A DNA stretch of 64,000 nucleotides from an uncultured Methanosarcinaceae archaeon (GCA_963847185.1 CAWJYV010000002.1:1-64000), one strand, 5' to 3'; positions 16,051-28,545 are shown, counted from the first letter of the stretch. The notes: generated by a model not told the origin, from the letters alone. Program-made: numbers and translations.

Positions 16051-17337
16051 TCACCTAGAAGGATAAGTTTCAGCCTCAATTTTCTGTTCCCTGGCCAGCG
16101 GCTTTGCAAGGTGCCTTCGGGCGCATGGCGGAACCTCATACAATCCTGCCCTGAGATCCCTTTCCACTTTACATCTGGTTTTTGAGGGGACCTGCGTCCC
16201 ACATTTTTTACAGCGGAAACCCTGTCCCTGCCCTGCAGATTTCATGTGTTTTTTGCAGGCGGGGCATATAGGGTTTTCTTCTTTATATAGAGGTGTAAGC
16301 ATTTTAATTTCTATTTTTTCTATATTCAGGGTCCCGGAGCTGACACTCCCCGAAACCAGGACTTTATCGCCTGGTACGAGTTTCCGGATAAGTGCCCTGA
16401 AGTTCTTAGTAGGTTCGAAAGCTGCACAGTCTATCTCATCCCCATTTTCATCTCTGATAGAAAAAATAACATGTCTTCCGGGAATTGTTTGTGGAAATGC
16501 CGAAACCGTACCTTCTAGCTTGTATGAATGCATATCACGAATCTCAGAAATGGCTGCTGCAGTCAGCAGATGCATATCCGTGCCCTGGTTTGTCCTGTAT
16601 ACAGCAAAGCGTTCGATAGGTTCGGCCCTTATCATATCTGCAGCTTTAGTAACAATTTCCGGATTCTCCCCCCGTATTCCGAAAAGCACGGGATCGGCAG
16701 AATGAGGTACACAGACCACAAGCCTGTTAGTAAGGTCCACAGTATCCCAGGTCTCAGGATATGTTTCCCTGTCAGCTTCAAAGAAACTTTCTTTTTCTAC
16801 TTCACGTGGAGTTCCCCATTTATCCTTCTGCCTGTATGCCAGGTATTCAAAGGTGTGTTCCCATTCATTAAGATTCAGCATGGCCCCGCAGGCTGCGAGA
16901 GCACCTATCAACCCTCTTCCGTTCTTGAAACCTTTTGAAGGAATCCCATATTCCAGAATCAGACTTTTTGCCTTTCTTATTTCTATAACTTCCCTGACAG
17001 CTTCCATTAAAAAACTCCCGAGAACGGACTTGAGGCCCTCATAATCTTGTTCCAGGATAAAAACAGCTCCAGGATTGGTTTTTTCGCATTCCATGTGCGC
17101 AAGTTCTTCTATTCTCGACACTACATGAGAAATTACCTTTTCCGGGCAGCCAGTTTTAATCTTCAGGGCTACTGCAGCATTTCCTCTTGTTTTGTAGGGA
17201 ATTGTAGGGTTCAGGCGCACAAGGAGAGGCAGTGCCTCTACAGTTCCGTAGGTCTGCAGTTCTTCTAGCAGCAAGGCTCCGAGATATGTAGTGCACATTC
17301 CTTCGTTTGAATCAGTATCGTCAATTCCAATAATCAT
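16051..17337 (-). CDS. tiaS: tRNA(Ile2) agmatinylcytidine synthetase
   Basis: IGIDDTDS, MCTTY, LVRLNPTIPYKTRGN, TNQGTD, AFEPT, C-terminal Zn ribbon, RRHLAKP. Confidence 0.96.
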   Translation of the reverse strand: MIIGIDDTDSNEGMCTTYLGALLLEELQTYGTVEALPLLVRLNPTIPYKTRGNAAVALKIKTGCPEKVISHVVSRIEELAHMECEKTNPGAVFILEQDYEGLKSVLGSFLMEAVREVIEIRKAKSLILEYGIPSKGFKNGRGLIGALAACGAMLNLNEWEHTFEYLAYRQKDKWGTPREVEKESFFEADRETYPETWDTVDLTNRLVVCVPHSADPVLFGIRGENPEIVTKAADMIRAEPIERFAVYRTNQGTDMHLLTAAAISEIRDMHSYKLEGTVSAFPQTIPGRHVIFSIRDENGDEIDCAAFEPTKNFRALIRKLVPGDKVLVSGSVSSGTLNIEKIEIKMLTPLYKEENPICPACKKHMKSAGQGQGFRCKKCGTQVPSKTRCKVERDLRAGLYEVPPCARRHLAKPLAREQKIEAETYPSR

Positions 17338-17490: not shown

Positions 17491-18474
17491 ATGACAAAAG
17501 AAGTTCTCATACATCAAATTATTGATGTATTGGCATGTGCGGGTTTTGCACTCTCTGACCGCTGCAATATTCGTCCGAGGAGTTTTGACGTTGCCGCACG
17601 AAAAGGCGAAACACTACTACTTTGCAAGGTTTTATTTAACATTGACGGCCTGAATGAAGAAACTGCCAGGGAGATGAAATACCTGGCCGAGTATCTCGGA
17701 GGTTCTGCTATTGTCGTGGGGGCCAAAACCAGAGATCAGATGCTTGAGGATAGCGTTGTATACATGCGTTACGATATCCTTGCCTTAAGTGTCCAAACCC
17801 TTCATGATTATTTTATCGAGAAGATTCCACCACTTGTCTCGGCCGCACCGGGAGGACTTTATGTCTCCATAGAAGGAGATCTCCTAAAAAAAGCAAGGAT
17901 GGAGAAGGCAATGTCTCTTGGCACCCTTGCTGCTATGGTAGGGGTTTCGAGGAGAACCATAAGCAAATATGAAGAAGAGGGCATGGATGCATCCATAGAT
18001 GTGGCGCTCCATTTAGAGGAAATTTTTGGAGTAGAACTGGCAAGACCCATAAACATCCTGGATTCCTGCGGGAGTAGAAAACCCAGAAAGAAAACCGAGC
18101 TCGGAAAAGAAGAACTGCCAAAATCCTCCGGTCTTTTGCCTGAAGATTTGATCCTTAATACAATTTCCATGCTTGGTTATGATGTCCTTCTCACGGCACA
18201 GGCACCATTTAAGGCAATTTCCAAGGATAAGTCTTCAGTAATTCTCACAGGAGTCAGCGAATTCAATACAACTGTAATCAAGAGAGCTCACCTTATGAGC
18301 AGCATTTCCTGTGTCACTGAGACACAGTCCGTATTTATTATCAACGGACATTCCAAAATAAAAGCCGTAGAAAATACAGTCCTCATCGAAAAGAAAGAAC
18401 TTGACAAAATAAGTGATTCTCAAGAACTTCTGGATTTCATAGAAGAACGCAAAGAAAATCACGACGAGGAGTAA
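17491..18474 (+). CDS. Conserved archaeal Cro/C1-type HTH transcriptional regulator
   Basis: SFDVAAR, KVLFNID, APGGLYV, HTH SLGTLAAMVGVSRRTISKYE. Confidence 0.88.
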   Translation: MTKEVLIHQIIDVLACAGFALSDRCNIRPRSFDVAARKGETLLLCKVLFNIDGLNEETAREMKYLAEYLGGSAIVVGAKTRDQMLEDSVVYMRYDILALSVQTLHDYFIEKIPPLVSAAPGGLYVSIEGDLLKKARMEKAMSLGTLAAMVGVSRRTISKYEEEGMDASIDVALHLEEIFGVELARPINILDSCGSRKPRKKTELGKEELPKSSGLLPEDLILNTISMLGYDVLLTAQAPFKAISKDKSSVILTGVSEFNTTVIKRAHLMSSISCVTETQSVFIINGHSKIKAVENTVLIEKKELDKISDSQELLDFIEERKENHDEE

Positions 18475-18496
18475 CGCCTGAACGGAAACTCACTAG

Positions 18497-18566
18497 TTGC
18501 GCCACCCGAATTACGATTCGGGAGCCCGCAGTCCTTTTCGCTTCGCTCAAGAGGACGAATTTATGG
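18497..18566 (+). repeat. Dispersed REP-like double-hairpin repeat (copy 1; partial copy at 18676-18706)
   Basis: CCCGAAT-TACG-ATTCGGG followed by GTCCTTTT...AAGAGGAC; homologous to 35755-35840. Confidence 0.75.
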
Positions 18567-18865
18567 TTTAGAATCTTGCTTAATTTTTTGAGTTTCTTGT
18601 CGGGATCGCAGTAAATCGAAGTTTTTCTGTGAGTTGCGATGTAATCTCAACAGCTCACTGTCTTTTTTGTTCTGCTTTGCTTCTCTCAAGAGGACTAACT
18701 TATGGCATGGAGGAATGATTCTTTTAATGGGACCCAGTTATTAGTTATGGATTTTTCATTCTGAACAGTGCTTACACACCATAAATTATCGTGAATTAAT
18801 TTTGGTTTTGAATTTGTTATAGTTCCAAAACACTAATATATGACTGTTTCATTCTAAACGCTTCG

Positions 18866-19474
18866 ATGACGGTAAAGATTGCAGTACTGGTCTCTGGAAG
18901 GGGCTCAAATCTCCAGGCAATCATAGATAGCATTGAAAAAGGTTGCATAAGGAATGCGGCAATCAATGTGGTTATTTCCAATAAGGCAGATGCTTATGCA
19001 CTCGAACGTGCAAGAAAGCATGGAATAAATGCTGTTTTTCTTGATCCTAAAGGGTACGATAGAGCAGAATATGACAGGGCAATTCTGAATGTTCTTAAAC
19101 AGCATGATACTGACCTTCTTCTGCTTGCGGGTTATTTCCGGCTTTTAGGGAGCGAAATCATTGAGGCATACAGGAACAGGATTCTGAATATTCATCCTTC
19201 TCTTCTTCCGGCTTTTAAAGGGCTTCATGCCCAGAAACAGGCATTCGAATACGGAGTGAAAGTTGTGGGCTGCACCGTACATTTTGTAGATGAAGGTCTG
19301 GATTCGGGGCCAATTGTCATCCAGAAATGTGTTCCTGTACTGGCTGAAGATACGGAAGAAACCCTTACTACAAGAATCCTTGAGCAGGAACATATTATCT
19401 ACCCTGAAGCTGTCAGGCTCTTTGTCGAGGGTAAACTTAAAATTGAGGGCAGAAATGTAGTATCTCTTAGTTGA
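18866..19474 (+). CDS. purN: Phosphoribosylglycinamide formyltransferase
   Basis: VLVSGRGSNLQA, LNIHPSLLP, GCTVHFVDEGLDSGP. Confidence 0.97.
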   Translation: MTVKIAVLVSGRGSNLQAIIDSIEKGCIRNAAINVVISNKADAYALERARKHGINAVFLDPKGYDRAEYDRAILNVLKQHDTDLLLLAGYFRLLGSEIIEAYRNRILNIHPSLLPAFKGLHAQKQAFEYGVKVVGCTVHFVDEGLDSGPIVIQKCVPVLAEDTEETLTTRILEQEHIIYPEAVRLFVEGKLKIEGRNVVSLS

Positions 19475-19796
19475 ACAACAGGAAAAATTCATGCTCAAAC
19501 CGGAATAGATTTTACTCATCGATGTCCCATTAATACCCTGTTAGTAACAAATTCAAACCTGCAGGGTTTTATTGGAGAATCCTTCGAAACAGAAGATTAT
19601 AAACCGATTAATTAATTTCATTTATCCAATTCTCAATCAGTTGCCAACCCTCAACCTGTTGAATACTTCAACCTTTGAGTAAATAAAAATTTGTCAGGCA
19701 GCTCTTAAAGATCTTCACATATTAACTTAAAACAAAAATCAACAAAAATATCTTGATTTCAAGTAAGGTTTAATTGAAGAGGTCCAGGTGACAATA

Positions 19797-21035
19797 ATGT
19801 CTTATATTGAAGAAATTGATCCAGAATTGTACGAGGCTATCAAAAAAGAAGCTGAGCGTCAGGAGTATAAATTGAACCTGATTGCATCCGAGAATTATGC
19901 AAGCAGAGCCGTCATGGAAGCCCAGGGCTCTATTATGACTAACAAATATGCCGAAGGTTATTCTGGCAAACGATACTACGGAGGCTGTGACTTCGTGGAT
20001 GTCGCTGAAGACCTTGCAATTGCCAGAGCAAAGGAGATATTTAAGGCAAAATATATTAACGTCCAGCCACACTCCGGTTCTGGAGCCAACATGGCTGTCT
20101 ATTTCTCTGTATTAAAGCCTGGAGATACCATCATGTCCATGGACCTCTCACATGGGGGGCATCTTTCCCATGGCAGTCCGGTTAGCTTCTCAGGAAAGCT
20201 CTATAATATTGTACCCTATGGAGTCAGCAAAGAAACTGAGACGCTTGACTATGATGAACTTATGAAAATGGCAAAAGAATGCAAGCCGAAAATGATCGTT
20301 TGCGGTGCATCTGCTTATCCACGTGAGATCAATTTCAAGAAGTTCAGGGAAATTGCTGACGAGGTTGGAGCTTACCTTCTTGCGGATATTGCCCATATTG
20401 CGGGGCTTGTAGTTGCAGGCGTACACCAGAGTCCTGTGCCTTATGCAGACTTCGTAACCACCACAACCCACAAGACCCTTCGAGGCCCAAGAGGCGGAAT
20501 GATCATTTCCAGAACAGAAGAACTTGCAATTGGAGTTAACAAGGCTGTATTCCCTGGCCTCCAGGGTGGGCCTCTTATGCACATCATAGCTGGAAAAGCA
20601 GTAGCCTTTAAAGAAGCCATGAGCGAGAGCTTCAGACAGGACCAGGACCAGACCATAAAGAACGCAAAAACTCTCTGCAAATGTTTGAAGGAGAAGGGCT
20701 TTGATATTGTTTCTGGTGGTACAGATAATCATCTTATGCTTGTAAACCTTAATAACATGAATATAACAGGTAAAGATGCAGAAGCTGCCCTTAGCAAAGC
20801 AGGGATAATTGCAAACAAAAACACAGTACCTTTTGAGACCCGCAGTCCTTTTGTCACGAGTGGGATAAGGCTTGGAACCCCTGCCTGCGCAACCAGAGGC
20901 ATGAAGGAAAAGGAAATGGAATTAGTTGCCGACTATATCGAAACCGCAATCAAGAATTCGGAGAACGATAAGCTCCTGTCAGAAACAAGTGACAAAGTAA
21001 AGGAACTCTGTTCAAGGTTCCCGGTTTATTGTTAA
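19797..21035 (+). CDS. glyA: Serine hydroxymethyltransferase (THF type)
   Basis: [42 protein letters not shown]. Confidence 0.98.
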
Positions 21036-21061
21036 TTGAAGAGGTTCGGGTGTTTTTACTG

Positions 21062-21925
21062 ATGTCAGCTGAAGACTTTGAATCACGGATCATCGATGGG
21101 AAAGTCCTTGCAAGGCAGATTGAAGAAGAAGTAAGGTCAGGAGTTGAGGCCCTGAAAAGCAACCGGGGAGTTACTCCCGGACTTGCTACAATCCTTGTAG
21201 GCGACGACCCTGCTTCAAGAATGTACGTCCGCCTGAAACATAAAGCCTGCGAACGAGTGGGCATAAAAGCAGAAGACTATCTTCTTCCGACAGAAACCAG
21301 TCAGGAGGAGCTATCTTCCCTTATCGACGCCCTTAATAAAAATAAGGATGTGCATGCAATCCTGCTTCAGCTCCCACTTCCGAGACACCTGCTTCCCCAG
21401 GAAGCAATGGAAGTTATATCTCCTTCAAAAGATGCAGATGGTTTCCACCCCTACAATATGGGCAGACTGATGATCGGAGATGAATTGCTCGTACCCTGTA
21501 CTCCCCACGGAGTAATCCGGGCGCTAGAGGAATACAATGTGCCTGTTAAAGGTAAAAATGTGGTTATTGTCGGACACAGTAATGTTGTTGGAAAACCCAT
21601 GGCTGCAATGTTCCTGAACCGAAATGCAACCGTTTCAGTTTGTCATGTGTTTACTGATGACTTGAAAAAATATACGCTTGGGGCCGATATCCTTGTGGTA
21701 GCTGCAGGAGTCAAACACCTGATCAAAGTCGACATGGTAAAAGAAGATGTAGTGATCTTTGATGTTGGGATTACTCAGGAAGAAAGCGGAGTATACGGAG
21801 ACGTAGATTTCGAAAAAGTGATCAAAAAAGCTTCCCTTATCACTCCTGTTCCAGGGGGCGTAGGCCCTCTTACAATTGCTATGCTTATGAAGCATGTGCT
21901 GATGTGTGCAGAGAAAAACTTTTGA
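21062..21925 (+). CDS. folD: Methylene-THF dehydrogenase/cyclohydrolase
   Basis: [35 protein letters not shown]. Confidence 0.97.
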
Positions 21926-23191
21926 AGTTTATTACATCGCCTTTGACAATATGGGTTTTGATTGAAAGAACAATAATTGCAGCAAATGACTTGCGAGAAA
22001 AGAATCAAGCCCATGACCCAATGAATATAGGACTTACGCCGTTAACTAGAGAAAGCAATAGCATGAGAATAAGGACTGTCTGAACCATTACATTCAGGGC
22101 AGATCTCTCATGCCTCATTTTGATATCCAATTGTGTGATTCTCGGGTTTGTAATATTTTTTGCATTACTACTTTGATAAGTTTCTTATTTGATTTGCTTC
22201 TTCTTTGGTAGGAAATGAATGTATAATTTCCCGAAAGATTTTTTGATAAGTGTATAAAAGCAGTTTAATTAATAAAGAGAAGGTACGGACATTCTAAAAG
22301 ACTTACTTAAATAGGAAGTATCAGGTATACTTTGAAACAAGTCCATACAAAGCCAATAAAAAGAAAAAAATAAAGTTTATTGCATAATTTTTAGTACTTA
22401 ATTATCATTTTATTGAGTTTTAATAATATCATGTGCTAATTCTTGTGATAAAATCCTTTAGTAAACTGGATTTGATTCACAGGAATTTATAAACTAAAGA
22501 TTTGAAGAGACATTTTTAATTTACTTGAATTTAAGTCAAGAAAATCTGTTTATACAATTGTACCAGAATGAGATCTTCAATTTCGAGTTAATTATCCCAA
22601 ATAAGTGAGTTGGAAGATGCTGTTTTCACACAAGATGGCAATCTGATAATGCACAATATAGCTTTCCTATTTGTATTAAATTAATTTCAAACATCAATAT
22701 TTTTATGTATTATTGAAGCTTATATATTACTATCTAAGTTGCCGTTAAGACCGACAAGTACTGATTAATGTATACTACATTGCTATCCCCAGATTCTGAT
22801 TGCTGGTGAAAAAACCCCTTTACAGAAAATTTCCCTTAATTAATTTCCATATTCAAAACCCTGTAGGTTTTAATTGTGATCTTAAACCTGCTAAATATGA
22901 GTTCCCCAATTTCCCTTTCATTCCTCCAGTACCCCCAGTTCCAAGCAAGAAAAATTGTTTTATTTCTCCAGCCTGCCGGAAGTTGCTGGTGACGAGATAA
23001 AAAGATATTCAGGGAATATTATGGTGGAGAAGCGGAAAAACTCGTTTCCAACTATACTTCAAAGGTATGCTGTTTGAAAAAGTCATATGAATAAAAAATT
23101 CTGTGAATCCGGCTTCCATCTTATTTACTATATACAATAAGCGCCTTTTGGCGCTAACTGATTCAAAACTTATATAGCCTGGTTGTCAAAA

Positions 23192-24418
23192 ATGGTAGTT
23201 GATACTGATATCTGCGGTATAAAATTGGGAGATCGATATCCTTCACATGTAATGGGCATTATTAATCTGAGCCCCGAGTCGTTTTACGAAAACTCGGTCG
23301 TAAATCCGGATTCTGCTCTTGAGATCGCCCTGAAAATGGTTGAGGACGGAGCAACTTTTCTGGATTTTGGAGCCCGTTCGACCTGGCGATTTTCCAAACC
23401 GATAAGCAGAAAAGAAGAACTTGAACGGGTTCTGCCTGTTCTTGAGGCTCTGGAAGGTAACGTAGATGCAGTGATTTCTGTAGATACGATGTTTTCTGAA
23501 ATTGCAGAAGAGGCTCTCAAAAGAGGAGCCGACATTATAAACGATGTATCCGGTTTTACCACAGATCCTGGAATGATTGATGTAGTTGCAGATTACGAAT
23601 GTCCTGCCATCGTTATGGCTTCAGATAAGGTTCCTGGAGATCCTCTGGGGATGGATTCTATTATTGAAACACTTGATTCGATTATACAGACTGCTGAAAC
23701 CGGAGGCATCCAACCGGAAAAACTCATACTTGATCCCGCAATAGGCAGATGGACAGATGAAAAACTTCCAGTCTATGATTTTGAAACCCTTGACGATTTT
23801 GAACGCCTCAAGATCTTTGAAAAACCCTTGCTTGCAGCTCTTTCAAGGAAATCTTTCATAGGAGAAGTTCTTGAAAAACCTGCAACTGAAAGACTCTATG
23901 GCAGTCTGGCTGCAGCAGCTATTGCAGTTTATAAGGGAGCCCACATCATCCGTACTCACGATGTGCCTGAAACCTTTGATATTGTGAAACTTTCAGGAGC
24001 TCTGAGAAGTCGGCCAAGTGAAGTAATAAGGGACAGGTATGAGGTTTCTGCACTTGATGTTAAGACTCCCCAGGATGCAGCAATGGCAATGAGGAAACTT
24101 GGGGCAACCTGGGCAGGTTCACAGGTAATGCAGAACAAAAGCATTCACCTCGTGCTGAAGATTCGTAATCTTACAACAACAGAAGCTCTGATAATAAAAC
24201 AGGAAATGCTTGCTCGGGGAGGAGATACAGCCCTGACAAGGGACGCGGTTTCACACGAAACAGAATCTACTGATGTACTTGTAATGGGCACCCTGCTGCA
24301 GTTTGAGCGCCTTGTCAGAAAACTTGAAGGACAGGCTCGTTCCCTTCCGCTTATCGCCGAAATGATCCGCGAATGTATTGCAAACCGGAGCGATCTTGAA
24401 TATCGATATTTGAGGTAA
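23192..24418 (+). CDS. folP: Dihydropteroate synthase with an extra C-terminal domain of about 130 aa
   Basis: VMGIINLSPESF, ISVDT, INDVSG, ILDPAIG, SRKSFI, IIRTHDV. Extension contains IIKQEMLARGGD. Confidence 0.9.
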   Translation: MVVDTDICGIKLGDRYPSHVMGIINLSPESFYENSVVNPDSALEIALKMVEDGATFLDFGARSTWRFSKPISRKEELERVLPVLEALEGNVDAVISVDTMFSEIAEEALKRGADIINDVSGFTTDPGMIDVVADYECPAIVMASDKVPGDPLGMDSIIETLDSIIQTAETGGIQPEKLILDPAIGRWTDEKLPVYDFETLDDFERLKIFEKPLLAALSRKSFIGEVLEKPATERLYGSLAAAAIAVYKGAHIIRTHDVPETFDIVKLSGALRSRPSEVIRDRYEVSALDVKTPQDAAMAMRKLGATWAGSQVMQNKSIHLVLKIRNLTTTEALIIKQEMLARGGDTALTRDAVSHETESTDVLVMGTLLQFERLVRKLEGQARSLPLIAEMIRECIANRSDLEYRYLR

Positions 24419-24420
24419 TT

Positions 24421-25035
24421 ATGATCATAACTTCAGCAAAACCCTTTGAGGAAATCCTGACCCTATTAAAAGATGAAGACAACATTTTCATTATAGGATG
24501 CAATGTTTGTGCTGCAAAACTTAAGACAGGCGGAGAGCCAGAAGTTCTTGAAATGTACAGAAGGCTTGAGGAGAGCGGAAAGCATGTTATAGGCTGGGCT
24601 CTTCCTACTGCAGCCTGTAGTGTCCGGTCTTTAGAGTCCCTAGCTGAGAAAAGCGAGAAAATACACAATGCAAGTTGTATCCTTGTAATGGGCTGCGGCA
24701 GTGGAGTCTCTTCCGTAGCGAATGTAGTGGAGGTACCTGTGTACGGCGCAAACGATACTCTTTCCCTAGGAGGATCGAGTGGGGGTAAACTCCTTTTCAA
24801 TCAGTGCATAATGTGTGGGAACTGCACCATAAGTGAGTTTGGAGGGCTCTGTCCTAAAGCCCAGTGCCCCAAAGGCCTTCTGAACGGGCCCTGTGGAGGG
24901 GCTGTTGATGGAGTGTGTGAAGTTAACAGGGAAAATGATTGTGTCTGGAATCAAATATATGAACGCTTGAAGAAAATTAAAAGGCTTGACCTTCTATACA
25001 TTATCCATGATCCTCAGGAACACTGCATTAAATAG
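24421..25035 (+). CDS. metV: Methylene-THF reductase small Fe-S/Zn subunit (MetV-like)
   Basis: GCNVCA, GCGSG, CIMCGNC, GGLCPKAQCPKGLLNGPCGG, CEV..DCVW. Confidence 0.88.
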   Translation: MIITSAKPFEEILTLLKDEDNIFIIGCNVCAAKLKTGGEPEVLEMYRRLEESGKHVIGWALPTAACSVRSLESLAEKSEKIHNASCILVMGCGSGVSSVANVVEVPVYGANDTLSLGGSSGGKLLFNQCIMCGNCTISEFGGLCPKAQCPKGLLNGPCGGAVDGVCEVNRENDCVWNQIYERLKKIKRLDLLYIIHDPQEHCIK

Positions 25036-25652
25036 TCCATCTAATCCAGTTTCTGATATTCTTATTTAATGCATTATTAGTTAGAGAGGGAAAGTGGATA
25101 GATAGCGTGAAAGTTCGCAATTTTCCGAAGCAGGATAGCATCTTAATAGAATAATTCGCCTTAAACTAGGCAGAATATCAGTTTTCTTCTAATCTCTTTT
25201 TCTGATTTTAAAGGGTTCAATTTCTGAAAGTATGGAAAACAACGCTCGGATTTTAGACTTATGTTAGAATAAGACAGACTATCCAATATTATAATAAAAG
25301 ATTGTGGGCAGGTTAAAACTACTCTTTTAATTATCCTAAGGCATTAACTATACTCCGAAAAAATCGGGATAAAAGTCTGGCTCTCAACCTATTGACTGGA
25401 AATTCTGCTAACTGTAGTATAAAATAAAAATGCCTTTATACTTTTTTCACTGAAAGCGCTAAAAACGATTTAATAAACCTCTCTTATAAAAAAATAAGCT
25501 AAGTACTCACAGATTATTTCCGAAAAACAATAAAAGTACATTTGGAGATCTGTATTGAGTGCTTGAAAAATAAATGAGCTTACTCTTTTCAAGCTGTCCA
25601 TGCTTCTCAGGAGCATGGTTTTAAATAATTTCATCTCTAATATTCTTATTTA

Positions 25653-26534
25653 ATGCTTTTTAATTTTCGTGAAAAACTGAATTCTAACAAATTTCTGGTC
25701 ACTGCTGAAGTCTCCCCTCCTAAGGGAACAAACTTTTCAGTCCCCCTGGAAGATGCCCGTCAGCTTAAAGGGATTGCAGACGCTCTAAATGTCACAGATA
25801 ATCAGTGTTCGATTATGCACATGAGTTCTCTGGCCTTTAGCAAGCTCCTGCTCGACGATGGGCATGAACCTATTATGCAACTCACCTGCAGAGATAGGAA
25901 CAGGATAGGTCTTCAGTCAGATCTTCTGGGAGCTTATGCGCTTGGTATCCAGAATATTTGTTTGATGACCGGGGATTTCCCTTCATGTGGAGACCACCCT
26001 GGATCAAAGCCCGTCTATGACCTAGATTCAGTACAGTTCCTGCAACTTATCAGGAAACTTGATTCAGGCATTGATTTTGCGGGAAACAAGCTGGACGGTG
26101 GGACTTCTTTCTGTACAGGCGCAGTCTCTGGAATAGATTCTGAGAAGCCTCTGCAGCTCATAAAGCTAGGGAAAAAAGTGAAGTGTGGAGCCGATTTTAT
26201 CCAGACTCAGGCTGTCTATGATGTGGGAATGTTCGAGGAATTTATGGAAGCTATAAGCCATCTTGAAGTACCTGTGATTGCAGGTTTGATCCCGCTCAAG
26301 TCCTTTGGAATGGCTGAGTACATGAACAAGAACATTTCAGGAATCAATGTGCCTGAGGAGATTATGCTCCGAATGAAAGAAGCGTCCGACCCTATTGAAG
26401 TGGGGCTTTCCATAGCTTCCGAAACCATAAAGGAACTGACAAGACTCTCAAGAGGAGTTCATATTATGCCGATAGGATCCCATAAAAACACTCCCAGACT
26501 GCTTTCTATGGCTGGAGTTCCAGGAAATAAATGA
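25653..26534 (+). CDS. metF: Methylenetetrahydrofolate reductase
   Basis: TAEVSPPKG, NVTDN, QLTCRDRN, TGD, GADFIQTQ. Confidence 0.93.
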   Translation: MLFNFREKLNSNKFLVTAEVSPPKGTNFSVPLEDARQLKGIADALNVTDNQCSIMHMSSLAFSKLLLDDGHEPIMQLTCRDRNRIGLQSDLLGAYALGIQNICLMTGDFPSCGDHPGSKPVYDLDSVQFLQLIRKLDSGIDFAGNKLDGGTSFCTGAVSGIDSEKPLQLIKLGKKVKCGADFIQTQAVYDVGMFEEFMEAISHLEVPVIAGLIPLKSFGMAEYMNKNISGINVPEEIMLRMKEASDPIEVGLSIASETIKELTRLSRGVHIMPIGSHKNTPRLLSMAGVPGNK

Positions 26535-26831
26535 GTAAAAAATCTCTTAAAACGGGAGGCTTCTTCCCCTTTTCGTAAACTTAAGACTTCAGCTTTTCTA
26601 TAAATTTCCTATTTTTCTAAAACTTCCTATTTCTCTTTATTTTACGTTGTGAGCTATATTTTATTATTTTCAGATTTTCCTCATTTTCAGATCATTTATA
26701 AAAGAGACCTTAGGGAGATATTTCGGATAAATTTATCAATATCTTCCGGCATTTTACGATTTGATTCTCTATCTATTAATCCATGATTCAGGAAATTGAG
26801 GCTAATTATCAGATTTTAAAGGCCGTGAAAT

Positions 26832-27653
26832 ATGACTTCAGAAAATACTTTCATTCAGATGTTTGGGGTTAAGACTCCTATTATTAAGGAAGGCGACGAT
26901 ATAGTACGGATTATAGAAACTTCACTGGAGGACGCAGGCCTTGTTCCGGTTGATGGAGATATTTTCGTACTGGCCGAATCCGCGGTAGGAACAGTGGAAA
27001 AAAGAATTGTTAAGCTTGCAAGTATTACTCCCGGAGAAAAGGCCCGGTTTCTTGGGGAAAAATACGGGATAGATCCCAGAGAAATGGAACTTGTGCTTCA
27101 GGAATGTGATGAGGTTTTCGGGGGAGTACCTGGTGCTGCCCTTACCATTACGAAAGGGGTTCTGGCTCCCAATGCAGGAATTGATGCTTCCAACGCTCCC
27201 GAGGGACATGTAGTTTTGCTTCCGAAAGACCCGCGAAAAAGTTCGGAGGATATTCGGAAACAACTCGAAAAGCATTACTCCTGCAGGCTGGGAGTAATTA
27301 TTGGGGATAGCAGGACTCAGCCTCTCAGGCTTGGCTGTTCAGGAATTGCACTTGGAGTTTCGGGATTTATGCCTGTAGAAGACGCACGGGGGACTTGCGA
27401 TATATACGGAAAACCTCTCCGCATTACATATAAGGCAGTTGCAGATAACATTGTTTCTGCTGCAGAGCTTCTTATGGGAGAGGCTGGAGAAAGAATTCCA
27501 TGTGTGTTAGTCCGTGGGGCCCCTGTAACTATGATAGACGAATCCCCGGAGATGCCAACAATTTCAATGGAAGGCTGCATGTATTTCGGCAATGTAATCA
27601 AAGGAAAGATAGAAGATCATAACTCTGGATGTCAAAAGAAATCAGAGCATTAA
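26832..27653 (+). CDS. CofE-family gamma-glutamyl ligase (FolC2-like subgroup)
   Basis: PIIKEGDD, PNAGIDASN, IIGDSRTQPLRLG, DIYGKPL, AELLMGEAGE. Confidence 0.85.
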   Translation: MTSENTFIQMFGVKTPIIKEGDDIVRIIETSLEDAGLVPVDGDIFVLAESAVGTVEKRIVKLASITPGEKARFLGEKYGIDPREMELVLQECDEVFGGVPGAALTITKGVLAPNAGIDASNAPEGHVVLLPKDPRKSSEDIRKQLEKHYSCRLGVIIGDSRTQPLRLGCSGIALGVSGFMPVEDARGTCDIYGKPLRITYKAVADNIVSAAELLMGEAGERIPCVLVRGAPVTMIDESPEMPTISMEGCMYFGNVIKGKIEDHNSGCQKKSEH

Positions 27654-28003
27654 ATGATTGGGTTGTAAGTAAAAAAGGGAGGCTTCTTTAGCATGCATTT
27701 TGCAGTTAAGTTATCTAGATATGGATCTAAGAGCTTGCTATTTCTTTATTTCATTAATCCATATTGAAGTAAAGCTTGCAAACCTGAGATAAGCATTATA
27801 TATTCTCGAAGAGATATATACAATAAATTAAACCTTGACCCTGTATTTGGGAATTCCATCTTTCAGGGTGACTATAATAAGAAGTTTTGGGTTTCCGGCA
27901 GCTCTGTCGTATGCACGATTATACAACATTGTTCTTGTATATGCTTCCGGAGTGGATCAAATAATAAAAGAGACGAAGATGTTTCAAATATACAGGTGAT
28001 TTT

Positions 28004-28270
28004 ATGAAACCGATGTTATTGGACTTTTCCGCAACATGGTGTGGACCTTGCAGAATGCAAAAACCAATTTTAGAAGAGCTCGAAAAAAAGTATGGGGATA
28101 AGGTTGAGTTCAAAGTTGTAGATGTGGATGAAAACCAGGAACTTGCCTCAAAATACAGCATACACGCTGTCCCGACACTGATTATCCAGAAGGATGGGAA
28201 AGAAGTAAAGCGTTTCATGGGAGTAACCCAGGGAAGTGTATTATCATCGGAACTCGATAAAATCCTCTAA
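28004..28270 (+). CDS. trxA: Thioredoxin
   Basis: DFSATWCGPC and VPT motifs. Confidence 0.95.
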   Translation: MKPMLLDFSATWCGPCRMQKPILEELEKKYGDKVEFKVVDVDENQELASKYSIHAVPTLIIQKDGKEVKRFMGVTQGSVLSSELDKIL

Positions 28271-28545
28271 TTTTTATTTTTCTAATATAAACGCCCGGGG
28301 TTACGAACCTGGGGCAAACCTTTTCCACATTGTATTTCCTGAGCTTTTTCAAAATCTGATCGTGAATTATTAGTTGGTTGATGTTATTTCCAAAACCATT
28401 TTTAATGCCGCATCACATCAGTTTTGCAATTCAGTGAGGTTATAGTAGACATGATTAATGCACAAAGCGTAAGCATTTCTACCATTGGAAACTTAATCCT
28501 GAAAACATCAACCTGATAATGAGGGACGACCAAAAATTAAAAAAT

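Follow-up and report, generated by a model that had tools for sequence, protein, structure and literature searches.

The subject of this analysis is a stretch of 64,000 nucleotides from an uncultured Methanosarcinaceae archaeon (GCA_963847185.1, CAWJYV010000002.1:1-64000; hereafter the window), and in particular two of its genes, folP, which encodes a dihydropteroate synthase (DHPS) followed by an additional C-terminal domain (the tail), and cofE2, which encodes a diverged gamma-glutamyl ligase of the CofE family. The best explanation, to which a probability of roughly 0.55 is given, is that the window holds the anabolic tetrahydrofolate (H4F) cluster of a Methanosarcina-type methanogen, in which the FolP tail would reduce the pterin and CofE2 would take the place of FolC. 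This reading is based on domain homology, domain architectures, synteny, phyletic patterns and residue replacements, and it is from sequence that we infer the binding of flavin, the reduction of the pterin, the order in which the steps occur and what CofE2 uses as its substrate. The genome of the window (G000, in which the window is G000:C2:1-64000) is 99.83% complete; in what follows, G, L and P denote genomes, loci and proteins, and f the families of a 301-genome sample of the phylum. Among the matches listed, the closest named relatives of the window's FolP are those of Methanosarcina species, with 81–90% identity.

A previous reading of the window, made from the sequence only (the sequence-only reading), had described a cluster of purN, glyA, folD, folP, metV and metF, closed by a CofE-family gene and with neither folA nor folC, and family profiles confirm both the genes and the lack of folA and folC within the cluster. 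A search of the whole genome extends this result, as TIGR01499 (FolC) gives zero matches in G000, and no true dihydrofolate reductase (DHFR) is found there, the sole PF00186 match being a sub-threshold one (24.2–24.8 bits, cut-off 25) to a protein of the RibD_C family. The same search, which finds neither a canonical folA nor a canonical folC, reveals that G000 holds two PF01996 genes, cofE2 in the window and a canonical cofE at G000:C7:165523-166152 (L001 1471-2235), so that the ligase of the cluster is not the only cofE of its genome. An H4F cluster of Methanosarcina (purN, folD, glyA, metF, metV, folP) has already been described, with tetrahydrofolate serving biosynthesis, in a passage of PMC9012536 citing Buchenau and Thauer 2004.

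The FolP of the window is a member of the DHPS family (TIGR01496, 220.6 bits against a cut-off of 162.6), and its DHPS domain ends near residue 259–271 of a 411-aa open reading frame (ORF). The ~140 residues beyond this point hold the elements of the extension to which the sequence-only reading had drawn attention, namely KIRNL, ALIIKQEMLARGGD and VLVMGT. Lengths of 408 or 411 aa, depending on the start chosen (ATG 23192 in the sequence-only reading), are found in most FolP relatives among the matches listed (best 120 of 819). No Pfam or NCBIfam model describes the tail domain (Pfam up to E 10 gave one chance match to a nucleoporin), and the best E of its profile against PDB sequences is 0.42. 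Its relatives are numerous: when 1.84 billion cluster representatives are searched by phmmer with the 137-aa tail, 522 reach E ≤ 1e-3 and 94 of these reach E ≤ 1e-10, and in a pattern scan with one genome per species a relative is encoded in at least 586 stretches. These include clear homologues in FolP fusions, which removes the doubt, raised together with the first proposal, that the tail might have no homology at all. When the tail is aligned with 41 short members of its family (alignment A1), K65 and L69 are invariant and K45, A61, Q66, G72, G73, A76, G95, T96 and Q99 are conserved at 90% or more (tail numbering), forming the motifs KQEMLxxGGDxA and MGTxxQ; the A1 profile recovers positions 24041–24391 of the window with E 6.6e-43.

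The tail domain occurs at either end of DHPS. Among the best 150 of the 522 relatives, classified by separate phmmer runs whose DHPS calls were confirmed by Pfam scans of samples, the domain stands before DHPS in 58 (proteins of ~400 aa), after it, as in the window, in 15, and in proteins of at most 170 aa (stand-alone genes or fragments) in 56, with other forms making up 21. At the level of loci (best 80 of the at least 586), it is C-terminal in 33/33 loci of Methanosarcinaceae, Methanoperedens and Methanocellales and N-terminal in 41/47 others (L037–L083), mostly from Bacillota and Thermodesulfobacteriota, plus two from Methanomassiliicoccales; the remaining six are five C-terminal cases (three Methanotrichaceae, a Thorarchaeota metagenome-assembled genome (MAG) and an uncultured archaeon) and one fragment. 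The domain is present in 90/301 genomes of the phylum and in 37/37 of the window's family. Ten low-GC-looking FolPs with an N-terminal domain belong, where a name was attached in a cluster look-up, to Clostridia, Margulisiibacteriota and Actinomycetota, and the named records of the fusion among the matches listed all say "dihydropteroate synthase" or "Pterin binding enzyme". No Helicobacter protein is among the matches listed for the tail profile (best 120 of 819 longer proteins), nearly all of which are from Methanosarcinales. Going by these relatives and their partners, the tail of FolP is a genuine domain, and one linked to the synthesis of folate. Other arrangements were also seen: the domain is fused before FolB (P0004) and behind HPPK (P0098), and it forms a tandem pair in a 228-aa protein (P0005). 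On a Methanococcoides scaffold (L014/L015) and in G293:C1:1914667-1923664, two copies of FolP with its tail lie ~8 kb apart with tail and metV fragments between them, which suggests a local duplication of the folP–metV pair.

A link between this domain and the replacement of DHFR is provided by the haloarchaeal-type families f11, f21, f22, f24, f29 and f34, in which it lies inside open frames of 806–1044 aa (E 2.3e-27 to 2.6e-4). In 3/3 of the long-frame loci examined, which have 66–71% GC, the domain immediately precedes DHPS; in L114, whose protein is acidic and haloarchaea-like, the order is FolC at residues 49–451 (TIGR01499, 320 bits), the domain at 460–564 (E 3.8e-29) and DHPS at 587–837. 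According to passages in two papers, a halobacterial FolC-FolP fusion complements a Haloferax volcanii folA mutant (PMC1274311; PMC3235422; both citing Levin et al. 2004), and, according to a passage in a third, a flavin-dependent dihydropteroate reductase is fused to DHPS in Helicobacter pylori (PMC1971073, citing Levin et al. 2007). By its matches and architectures, the tail is a homologue of the linker in the fusions that replace DHFR, and also of the domain found at the N-terminus in architectures like that of H. pylori FolP. The sequence-only reading had proposed a reductase domain moved to the C-terminus; the placement fits, with an N-terminal domain in mostly bacterial loci (41/47), a C-terminal one in 33/33 loci of Methanosarcinia and Methanocellales and a linker in FolC-X-FolP, and the reductase activity is weighed below.

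The distribution of DHFR was examined in the same genomes. True DHFR (PF00186 above 100 bits) is limited to haloarchaeal-type families of the 301-genome sample, with none in methanogen-type families and 0/62 among the tail-bearing genomes of the latter. In bacteria, PF00186 is found in 0/10 genomes with the N-terminal form against 10/14 control genomes, where the ten carriers, several of them kin and with completeness not stated, are isolates of Desulfofundulus (two), Desulforamulus, Heliophilum and Desulfocucumis and five MAGs. In family f21, DHFR is missing from four genomes that match the domain strongly, and four others with DHFR match it weakly or not at all, a split that counts for one or two events at most because it follows genera. 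A simple complementarity, by which lineages with a tail-less FolP would keep FolA, was considered and rejected, as PF00186 occurs in 0/47 such genomes.

The tail was also modelled. The AlphaFold2 model obtained with A1 as input is confident (predicted local distance difference test (pLDDT) 93, predicted template modelling (pTM) score 0.83), with elements in the order b-b-a-a-b-a-b-a-b-a-a, where b is a strand and a is a helix. The highest-TM rows of a Foldseek search are ThyX (4fzb, TM 0.57, with an E of only 0.08), and in a search of 48,161 chains with an exhaustive structural aligner ThyX takes the top four places with Z 8.8–8.0 (2af6, Z 8.8, 111 residues aligned with a root-mean-square deviation of 4.5; 4fzb, Z 8.6, 112 aligned; 5chp, Z 8.1, 95 aligned; 3ah5, Z 8.0, 104 aligned), followed by the ThyX relative PolB (Z 7.0) and then by generic ferredoxin-like folds (Z ≤ 6.2). 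This likeness is a lead only, because Z 7–8 is the aligner's usual best for unmatched models, and it is strengthened because the top five places go to one flavin- and folate-binding family. The ThyX sequence family itself (PF02511) gives no match to the tail up to E 10. Two copies of the tail together with flavin mononucleotide (FMN) are predicted as a homodimer with a score of 0.79, against 0.00 for the best of three controls; the mark used for dimers is reached by 20/30 proteins solved as one-chain pairs against 1/23 solved as single chains, a calibration whose counts are only rough because the tail's own alignment was used and FMN was present. The dimer runs share at least 93% of contacts, with a partner pLDDT of at least 86, and the confident interface includes K45, G72–D74, A76 and G95–T96, which are the conserved motifs of the family and of which K45, G72, G73, A76, G95 and T96 are near-invariant. 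As modelled, the interface fits a site shared by two subunits, an arrangement compatible with DHPS dimers; in ThyX, the sites are located at subunit interfaces.

For the ligase, the placement within the CofE family rests on profiles, on a tree and on residues. With the strict cofE equivalog model NF009809 (cut-off 274), the canonical cofE of the genome scores 363 bits and CofE2 192.6, under the cut-off. With TIGR04132, the model of the chlamydial FolC2 (cut-off 350), CofE2 scores 116 bits, other CofE2 members 102 and 82, and the canonical cofE 82; CofE2 is therefore not in the FolC2 family and the likeness is one of analogy. The sequence-only reading, which had called the ligase FolC2-type and had proposed glutamylation by a CofE paralogue, thus loses the first of these points and probably keeps the second, in the form of a separate CofE clade with an analogous task. 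This clade is seen in a quick maximum-likelihood tree (IQ-TREE, 50 rows), in which a branch with a support of 100 in the Shimodaira–Hasegawa-like approximate likelihood ratio test (SH-aLRT) divides 21 canonical rows, with genes elsewhere in the genomes, from 29 FolP-linked rows, plus L128; the genome's own canonical cofE (L001) is on a long branch, possibly as an effect of trimming. The motif GDSRTQPLRLG, noticed at the outset, is present at residues 158–168, where the canonical cofE of the same genome reads TDTNGRAFKIG. Between the clades the canonical D(T/S)xGR(P/A/C)FRxG contrasts with DSRT(Q/H)(P/A)(L/M)R(L)G of CofE2, P(F/I) contrasts with PG, and the canonical C-terminal "YR...D" contrasts with a gap and a conserved Cys. 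On these comparisons CofE2 is a distinct clade of the CofE family.

In the CofE of Archaeoglobus fulgidus, the F420 chromophore is held by F92, by G153–C155 and, from the partner subunit, by R234, as described in a part of PMC10861534. When the CofE2 of the window is aligned with 2g9i by HMMER (the native numbering of 2g9i by our own count, and the column of R234 placed by counting in the row of a close relative), F92 corresponds to G101 and G153-R154-C155 to T162-Q163-P164. The replacement holds for the clade, since across 28–29 CofE2 rows the chromophore contacts are Gly and Thr-Gln/His-Pro/Ala, with the "YR" motif missing. At the same time, 39 columns are conserved in both CofE clades, many of them Asp, Glu, Ser, Asn or Arg. 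The retention of these columns together with the replacement of the chromophore contacts suggests that the ligase chemistry has been kept and the F420 pocket rebuilt.

CofE2 and FolC are found in different families of the phylum. By a hand count over the 301 genomes, a CofE2-level match (E ≤ 1e-59, 44–100% identity) is found in 108/109 genomes of 13 families (f1–f5, f9, f15–f18, f25–f27), most of the 108 showing a second, weaker CofE match, and FolC-bearing families reach only 1e-21 to 1e-45 with the same query. FolC (TIGR01499) is over its cut-off in 51/301 genomes, all of them in families without a CofE2-level match, and in 0/109 genomes of the CofE2 families; this complementarity is a family-level pattern and not a statistic, because kin are not independent. 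Position points in the same direction as distribution: in 13 families, none of which has FolC, cofE2 neighbours folP or lies in its vicinity, and it is adjacent to folP in at least ten, tail-less ones included. CofE2 comes after FolP in 18 of 80 loci; the cofE2 match begins 24–72 bp after the tail match in 8/8 f4 genomes, and similarly near in the f9, f16 and f18 rows checked. In G000 and in 8/10 other genomes of the same genus it lies 2–4 kb downstream, past metV and metF, the two exceptions being G164, with the genes on different contigs, and G208, with no match; elsewhere in the window's family, in genera other than this one, 3 to 211 kb separate the two genes. In two Methanotrichaceae loci (L065 4399-5577, L070 4333-5511), no stop codon separates the CofE2 frame from a following cytidine/dCMP deaminase domain of 126 aa (PF00383, 62–65 bits), a fusion that would tie the ligase to pyrimidine (dUMP/thymidylate) metabolism.

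The mechanism that we propose has three steps. The DHPS barrel joins para-aminobenzoate (pABA) to 6-hydroxymethyl-dihydropterin diphosphate, an intermediate common with methanopterin synthesis, to give 7,8-dihydropteroate; this step is well-founded because FolP belongs to the DHPS family. Buchenau and Thauer are said to have reported, in 2004, that Methanosarcina barkeri is sensitive to sulfanilamide. Most likely, the fused C-terminal domain, acting as a dimer, would reduce dihydropteroate, and perhaps dihydrofolate, with a flavin, the conserved motifs of the tail meeting at the predicted homodimer interface as in the ThyX-type fold that it resembles. CofE2, as a paralogue of the F420 ligase that has kept the GTP, metal and glutamate core and lost the F420-chromophore contacts, would most likely, before or after this reduction, add the first glutamate, and probably further ones, with GTP, to (tetrahydro)pteroate or folate in the place of FolC. 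A bolder form of this proposal, possible though doubtful, is that the 110-aa module is a minimal ThyX-fold flavoprotein with an active site across the homodimer interface and would serve as a portable reductase of pterin rings, making up with CofE2 a full FolA- and FolC-independent end of H4F synthesis that would be normal in Methanosarcinia, Methanocellales, Methanotrichales and the anaerobic methanotrophic archaea ANME-2/3 and independent in origin of the chlamydial FolC2.

Several observations weigh against the roles proposed for the tail and for CofE2. The assignment of reductase activity to this domain goes back only to abstracts of Levin from 2004 and 2007, the former of which reportedly assigns the H. 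pylori activity to an N-terminal part with homology to the linker of the haloarchaeal proteins, and the link between H. pylori FolP and the tail is indirect, by way of the bacterial N-terminal forms and the FolC-X-FolP linker. No flavin-binding family or PDB sequence matched the tail in the Pfam, NCBIfam and PDB profile searches, Foldseek found nothing in the PDB for its model at E ≤ 1e-3, and its structural scores of Z 8–9 are close to what the aligner usually returns for unmatched models. The genome has a ThyA-type thymidylate synthase and no ThyX; if this ThyA uses H4F, dihydrofolate must be re-reduced, which is a substrate other than dihydropteroate. Many haloarchaeal-type genomes hold both the domain and DHFR (9/9 and 9/9 in f24; 4/5 and 5/5 in f22). 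Furthermore, families f5, f15, f17, f25, f26 and f27 have the tail domain in 0/47 genomes and DHFR in 0/47, and 8/8 loci examined from them (L120–L127) carry a glyA–folD–folP(tail-less)–cofE2 operon without FolC; another reductase must therefore be at work in these families and could serve the genome of the window too. G000 does encode a TIGR02700 (flavo_MJ0208) protein, at 405 bits, of a family which we take to be that of the dihydromethanopterin reductase DmrX, and a DmrX-type protein is the obvious alternative candidate for the reductase. As for the ligase, CofE2 is over the cut-off of the F420 cofE model TIGR01916 (193.8 against 180.65), the folP–cofE2 spacing inside the window's family spans 2 kb to 211 kb, and G208, of the same genus, is the one genome of 109 without a CofE2 match; G208 (99% complete, 70 contigs) has the FolP tail and a single CofE match at E 3e-32, and its lack of CofE2 could be a gene loss or an assembly gap.

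Some of these points can be gathered into an account in which the tail serves DHPS as an appendage for structure, oligomerisation or ligand sensing, and another enzyme, for instance the DmrX-type dihydromethanopterin reductase with which methanogens are already equipped, reduces the dihydro-pterin. The tail-less families with the same cluster, the TIGR02700 protein and the missing flavin-family match all agree with it, as do the near-invariant residues (K, Q, G, A and T), among which Cys, His and Arg are missing, and a pure dimerisation role would fit the predicted dimer equally well. We nevertheless hold this account to be rather unlikely, for the fusion partners of the domain are only folate enzymes of the pterin branch (FolP at either end, FolB, HPPK and FolC-FolP), the nearest fold is that of a flavin- and folate-binding enzyme, DHFR is absent from all ten bacterial carriers, and DHFR has been replaced genetically by FolC-X-FolP fusions, according to passages in PMC1274311 and PMC3235422. 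A different objection concerns the ligase only, and holds that CofE2 acts on F420, for example in lengthening F420-2 towards the long-tailed forms of Methanosarcina, or on some other cofactor that carries glutamate, and not on folate. Methanosarcina F420 bears 4–5 glutamates, CofE2 is a PF01996 member with a conserved catalytic core that passes TIGR01916, and cofE2 is 9–211 kb from folP in several genera of the family. We consider this improbable in view of the adjacency of cofE2 and folP in at least ten families, those without the tail among them, of its strict family-level complementarity with FolC, of the replacement across the clade of all three published F420-chromophore contacts, and of a score under the stricter cut-off of NF009809.

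It could be argued, too, that the genome is not without a DHFR, and that the RibD_C-family protein (182 aa, G000:C8:53712-54257) is a real one, as it gives 68 bits with PF01872, is just under the PF00186 cut-off of 25 and is encoded 2.7 kb from thyA. Such a protein occurs in 13/41 genomes of the family (12/30 of good quality), against 37/37 for the FolP tail, and the genes of an M48 peptidase and an Mrr endonuclease stand between it and thyA; because of this limited occurrence and of the two unrelated genes, it is not the general solution of the family and was rejected as its general DHFR. Members of PF01872 are moreover flagged, in a passage of PMC1971073, as easily mistaken for DHFR, and the chance that this one is a true DHFR seems very small. 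The locus (L131, G000:C8:50329-54257) shows a short archaeal-type ThyA (230 aa) adjoining aroA, with the RibD_C gene at its far end.

The features of the cluster are collected in Table 1. The folD frame opens at TTG 21029 and its true start is probably the ATG near 21062; 1.26 kb separate folD from folP. In this gap, a 24-nt core (22693–22716) is identical in 9/9 Methanosarcina-type loci, with drifting flanks. The core lies ~480 nt upstream of folP and includes a palindrome, TCAATA ... TATTGA, whose arms flank a T-rich, TATA-like stretch; it may be a promoter accompanied by an operator, or else the beginning of a long leader, and an Rfam scan of 18000–28500 found no RNA family at E ≤ 1. The cluster is preceded by genes for TiaS, the tRNA-Ile agmatidine synthetase (16051–17337, minus strand), and for a 327-aa HTH_3-domain protein (17491–18474, plus strand). 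RNA-library contigs from two studies, 95–99% identical to the window, overlap parts of folP, metV and metF, and those of one run only (X1) span the junction between DHPS and tail (22888–24123) and cofE2 (26768–27622); as support for transcription of the cluster they are weak, because carry-over of DNA into RNA libraries is possible, and the lack of contigs over other stretches carries no meaning.

Table 1. Genes of the tetrahydrofolate cluster and domains of FolP, in window positions
Feature	Position	Strand	Evidence and remarks
purN (glycinamide ribonucleotide (GAR) formyltransferase)	18866–19474	+	PF00551, 201 bits; first gene of the H4F cluster
glyA (serine hydroxymethyltransferase)	19788–21035	+	PF00464, 572 bits
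folD (methylene-H4F dehydrogenase/cyclohydrolase)	21029–21925 (ORF)	+	PF02882 and PF00763
folP, DHPS with C-terminal extra domain	23192–24418	+	408 aa from ATG 23192; 411 aa from TTG 23183
DHPS (Pterin_bind) domain of FolP	23252–23959	+	PF00809, residues 24–259 of the 411-aa ORF, 199.6 bits
C-terminal domain of FolP, ~110 aa, putative flavin-dependent dihydropteroate/dihydrofolate reductase module	24020–24391	+	Motifs KQEMLxxGGDxA and (L/V)MGTxxQ
metV (small subunit resembling the C-terminal part of methylenetetrahydrofolate reductase (MTHFR); DUF5981)	24421–25035	+	PF12225, 106 bits
metF (methylene-H4F reductase)	25653–26534	+	PF02219, 126.7 bits
cofE2, diverged CofE-family gamma-glutamyl ligase, putative (dihydro/tetrahydro)pteroate/folate:glutamate ligase	26832–27653	+	273 aa; PF01996, 249 bits

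Already known are the H4F cluster, the reductase fusion of H. pylori and the FolC2 of Chlamydia, and a comparison with these and other systems defines what the window adds. H. pylori FolP ("DHFR2"), as far as it is described in the text cited above, resembles that of the window in joining DHPS to one small extra domain, in a genome without FolA and with a flavin-dependent reduction of dihydropteroate proposed, but its extra domain (~105 aa) is N-terminal and not C-terminal, and the genome of the window has ThyA rather than ThyX and is also without FolC. The haloarchaeal FolC-FolP fusions share with the tail the homologous segment between FolC and FolP (E 3.8e-29 in L114) and differ in carrying a true FolC, in having the domain before DHPS and in the retention of DHFR in many genomes. 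Chlamydia trachomatis FolC2 (CT611, COG1478) is a CofE homologue that complements E. coli folC, according to a passage of PMC1971073; like CofE2, it is a ligase of the CofE family whose gene stands among folate genes where the genome has no FolC, but the FolC2 type is expected in a host that makes no F420, where the ligase has no F420 role, whereas the genome of the window makes F420 and keeps a canonical cofE (363 bits with NF009809). The A. fulgidus CofE (PDB 2PHN/2G9I/7ULD) has the same fold and family as CofE2 (138 bits) and differs from it at F92, G153-R154-C155 and R234, all replaced in CofE2. Lastly, the structure closest to the tail model is that of ThyX, an enzyme that binds FAD and folate; the tail is about half the size of ThyX and gives no PF02511 sequence match. 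In the literature searched (mostly open papers, supplements aside), we found no description of the domain in its C-terminal form, of a ThyX-like fold for it or of the CofE2 clade, and the same literature is silent on pteroate reduction and glutamylation in Methanosarcina without FolA and FolC.

The analysis thus names two concrete candidates for the FolA and FolC gaps, and it defines a widespread domain family without annotation, to which 522 cluster representatives and no fewer than 586 stretches of genomic DNA belong. The ThyX-like fold, if true, would be the first structural idea for the Levin-type reductase. CofE2 is prone to being named "coenzyme F420-0:L-glutamate ligase", because it is over the TIGR01916 cut-off; if the reading of CofE2 as a folate ligase is true, this would amount to a systematic mis-annotation in methanogen genomes.

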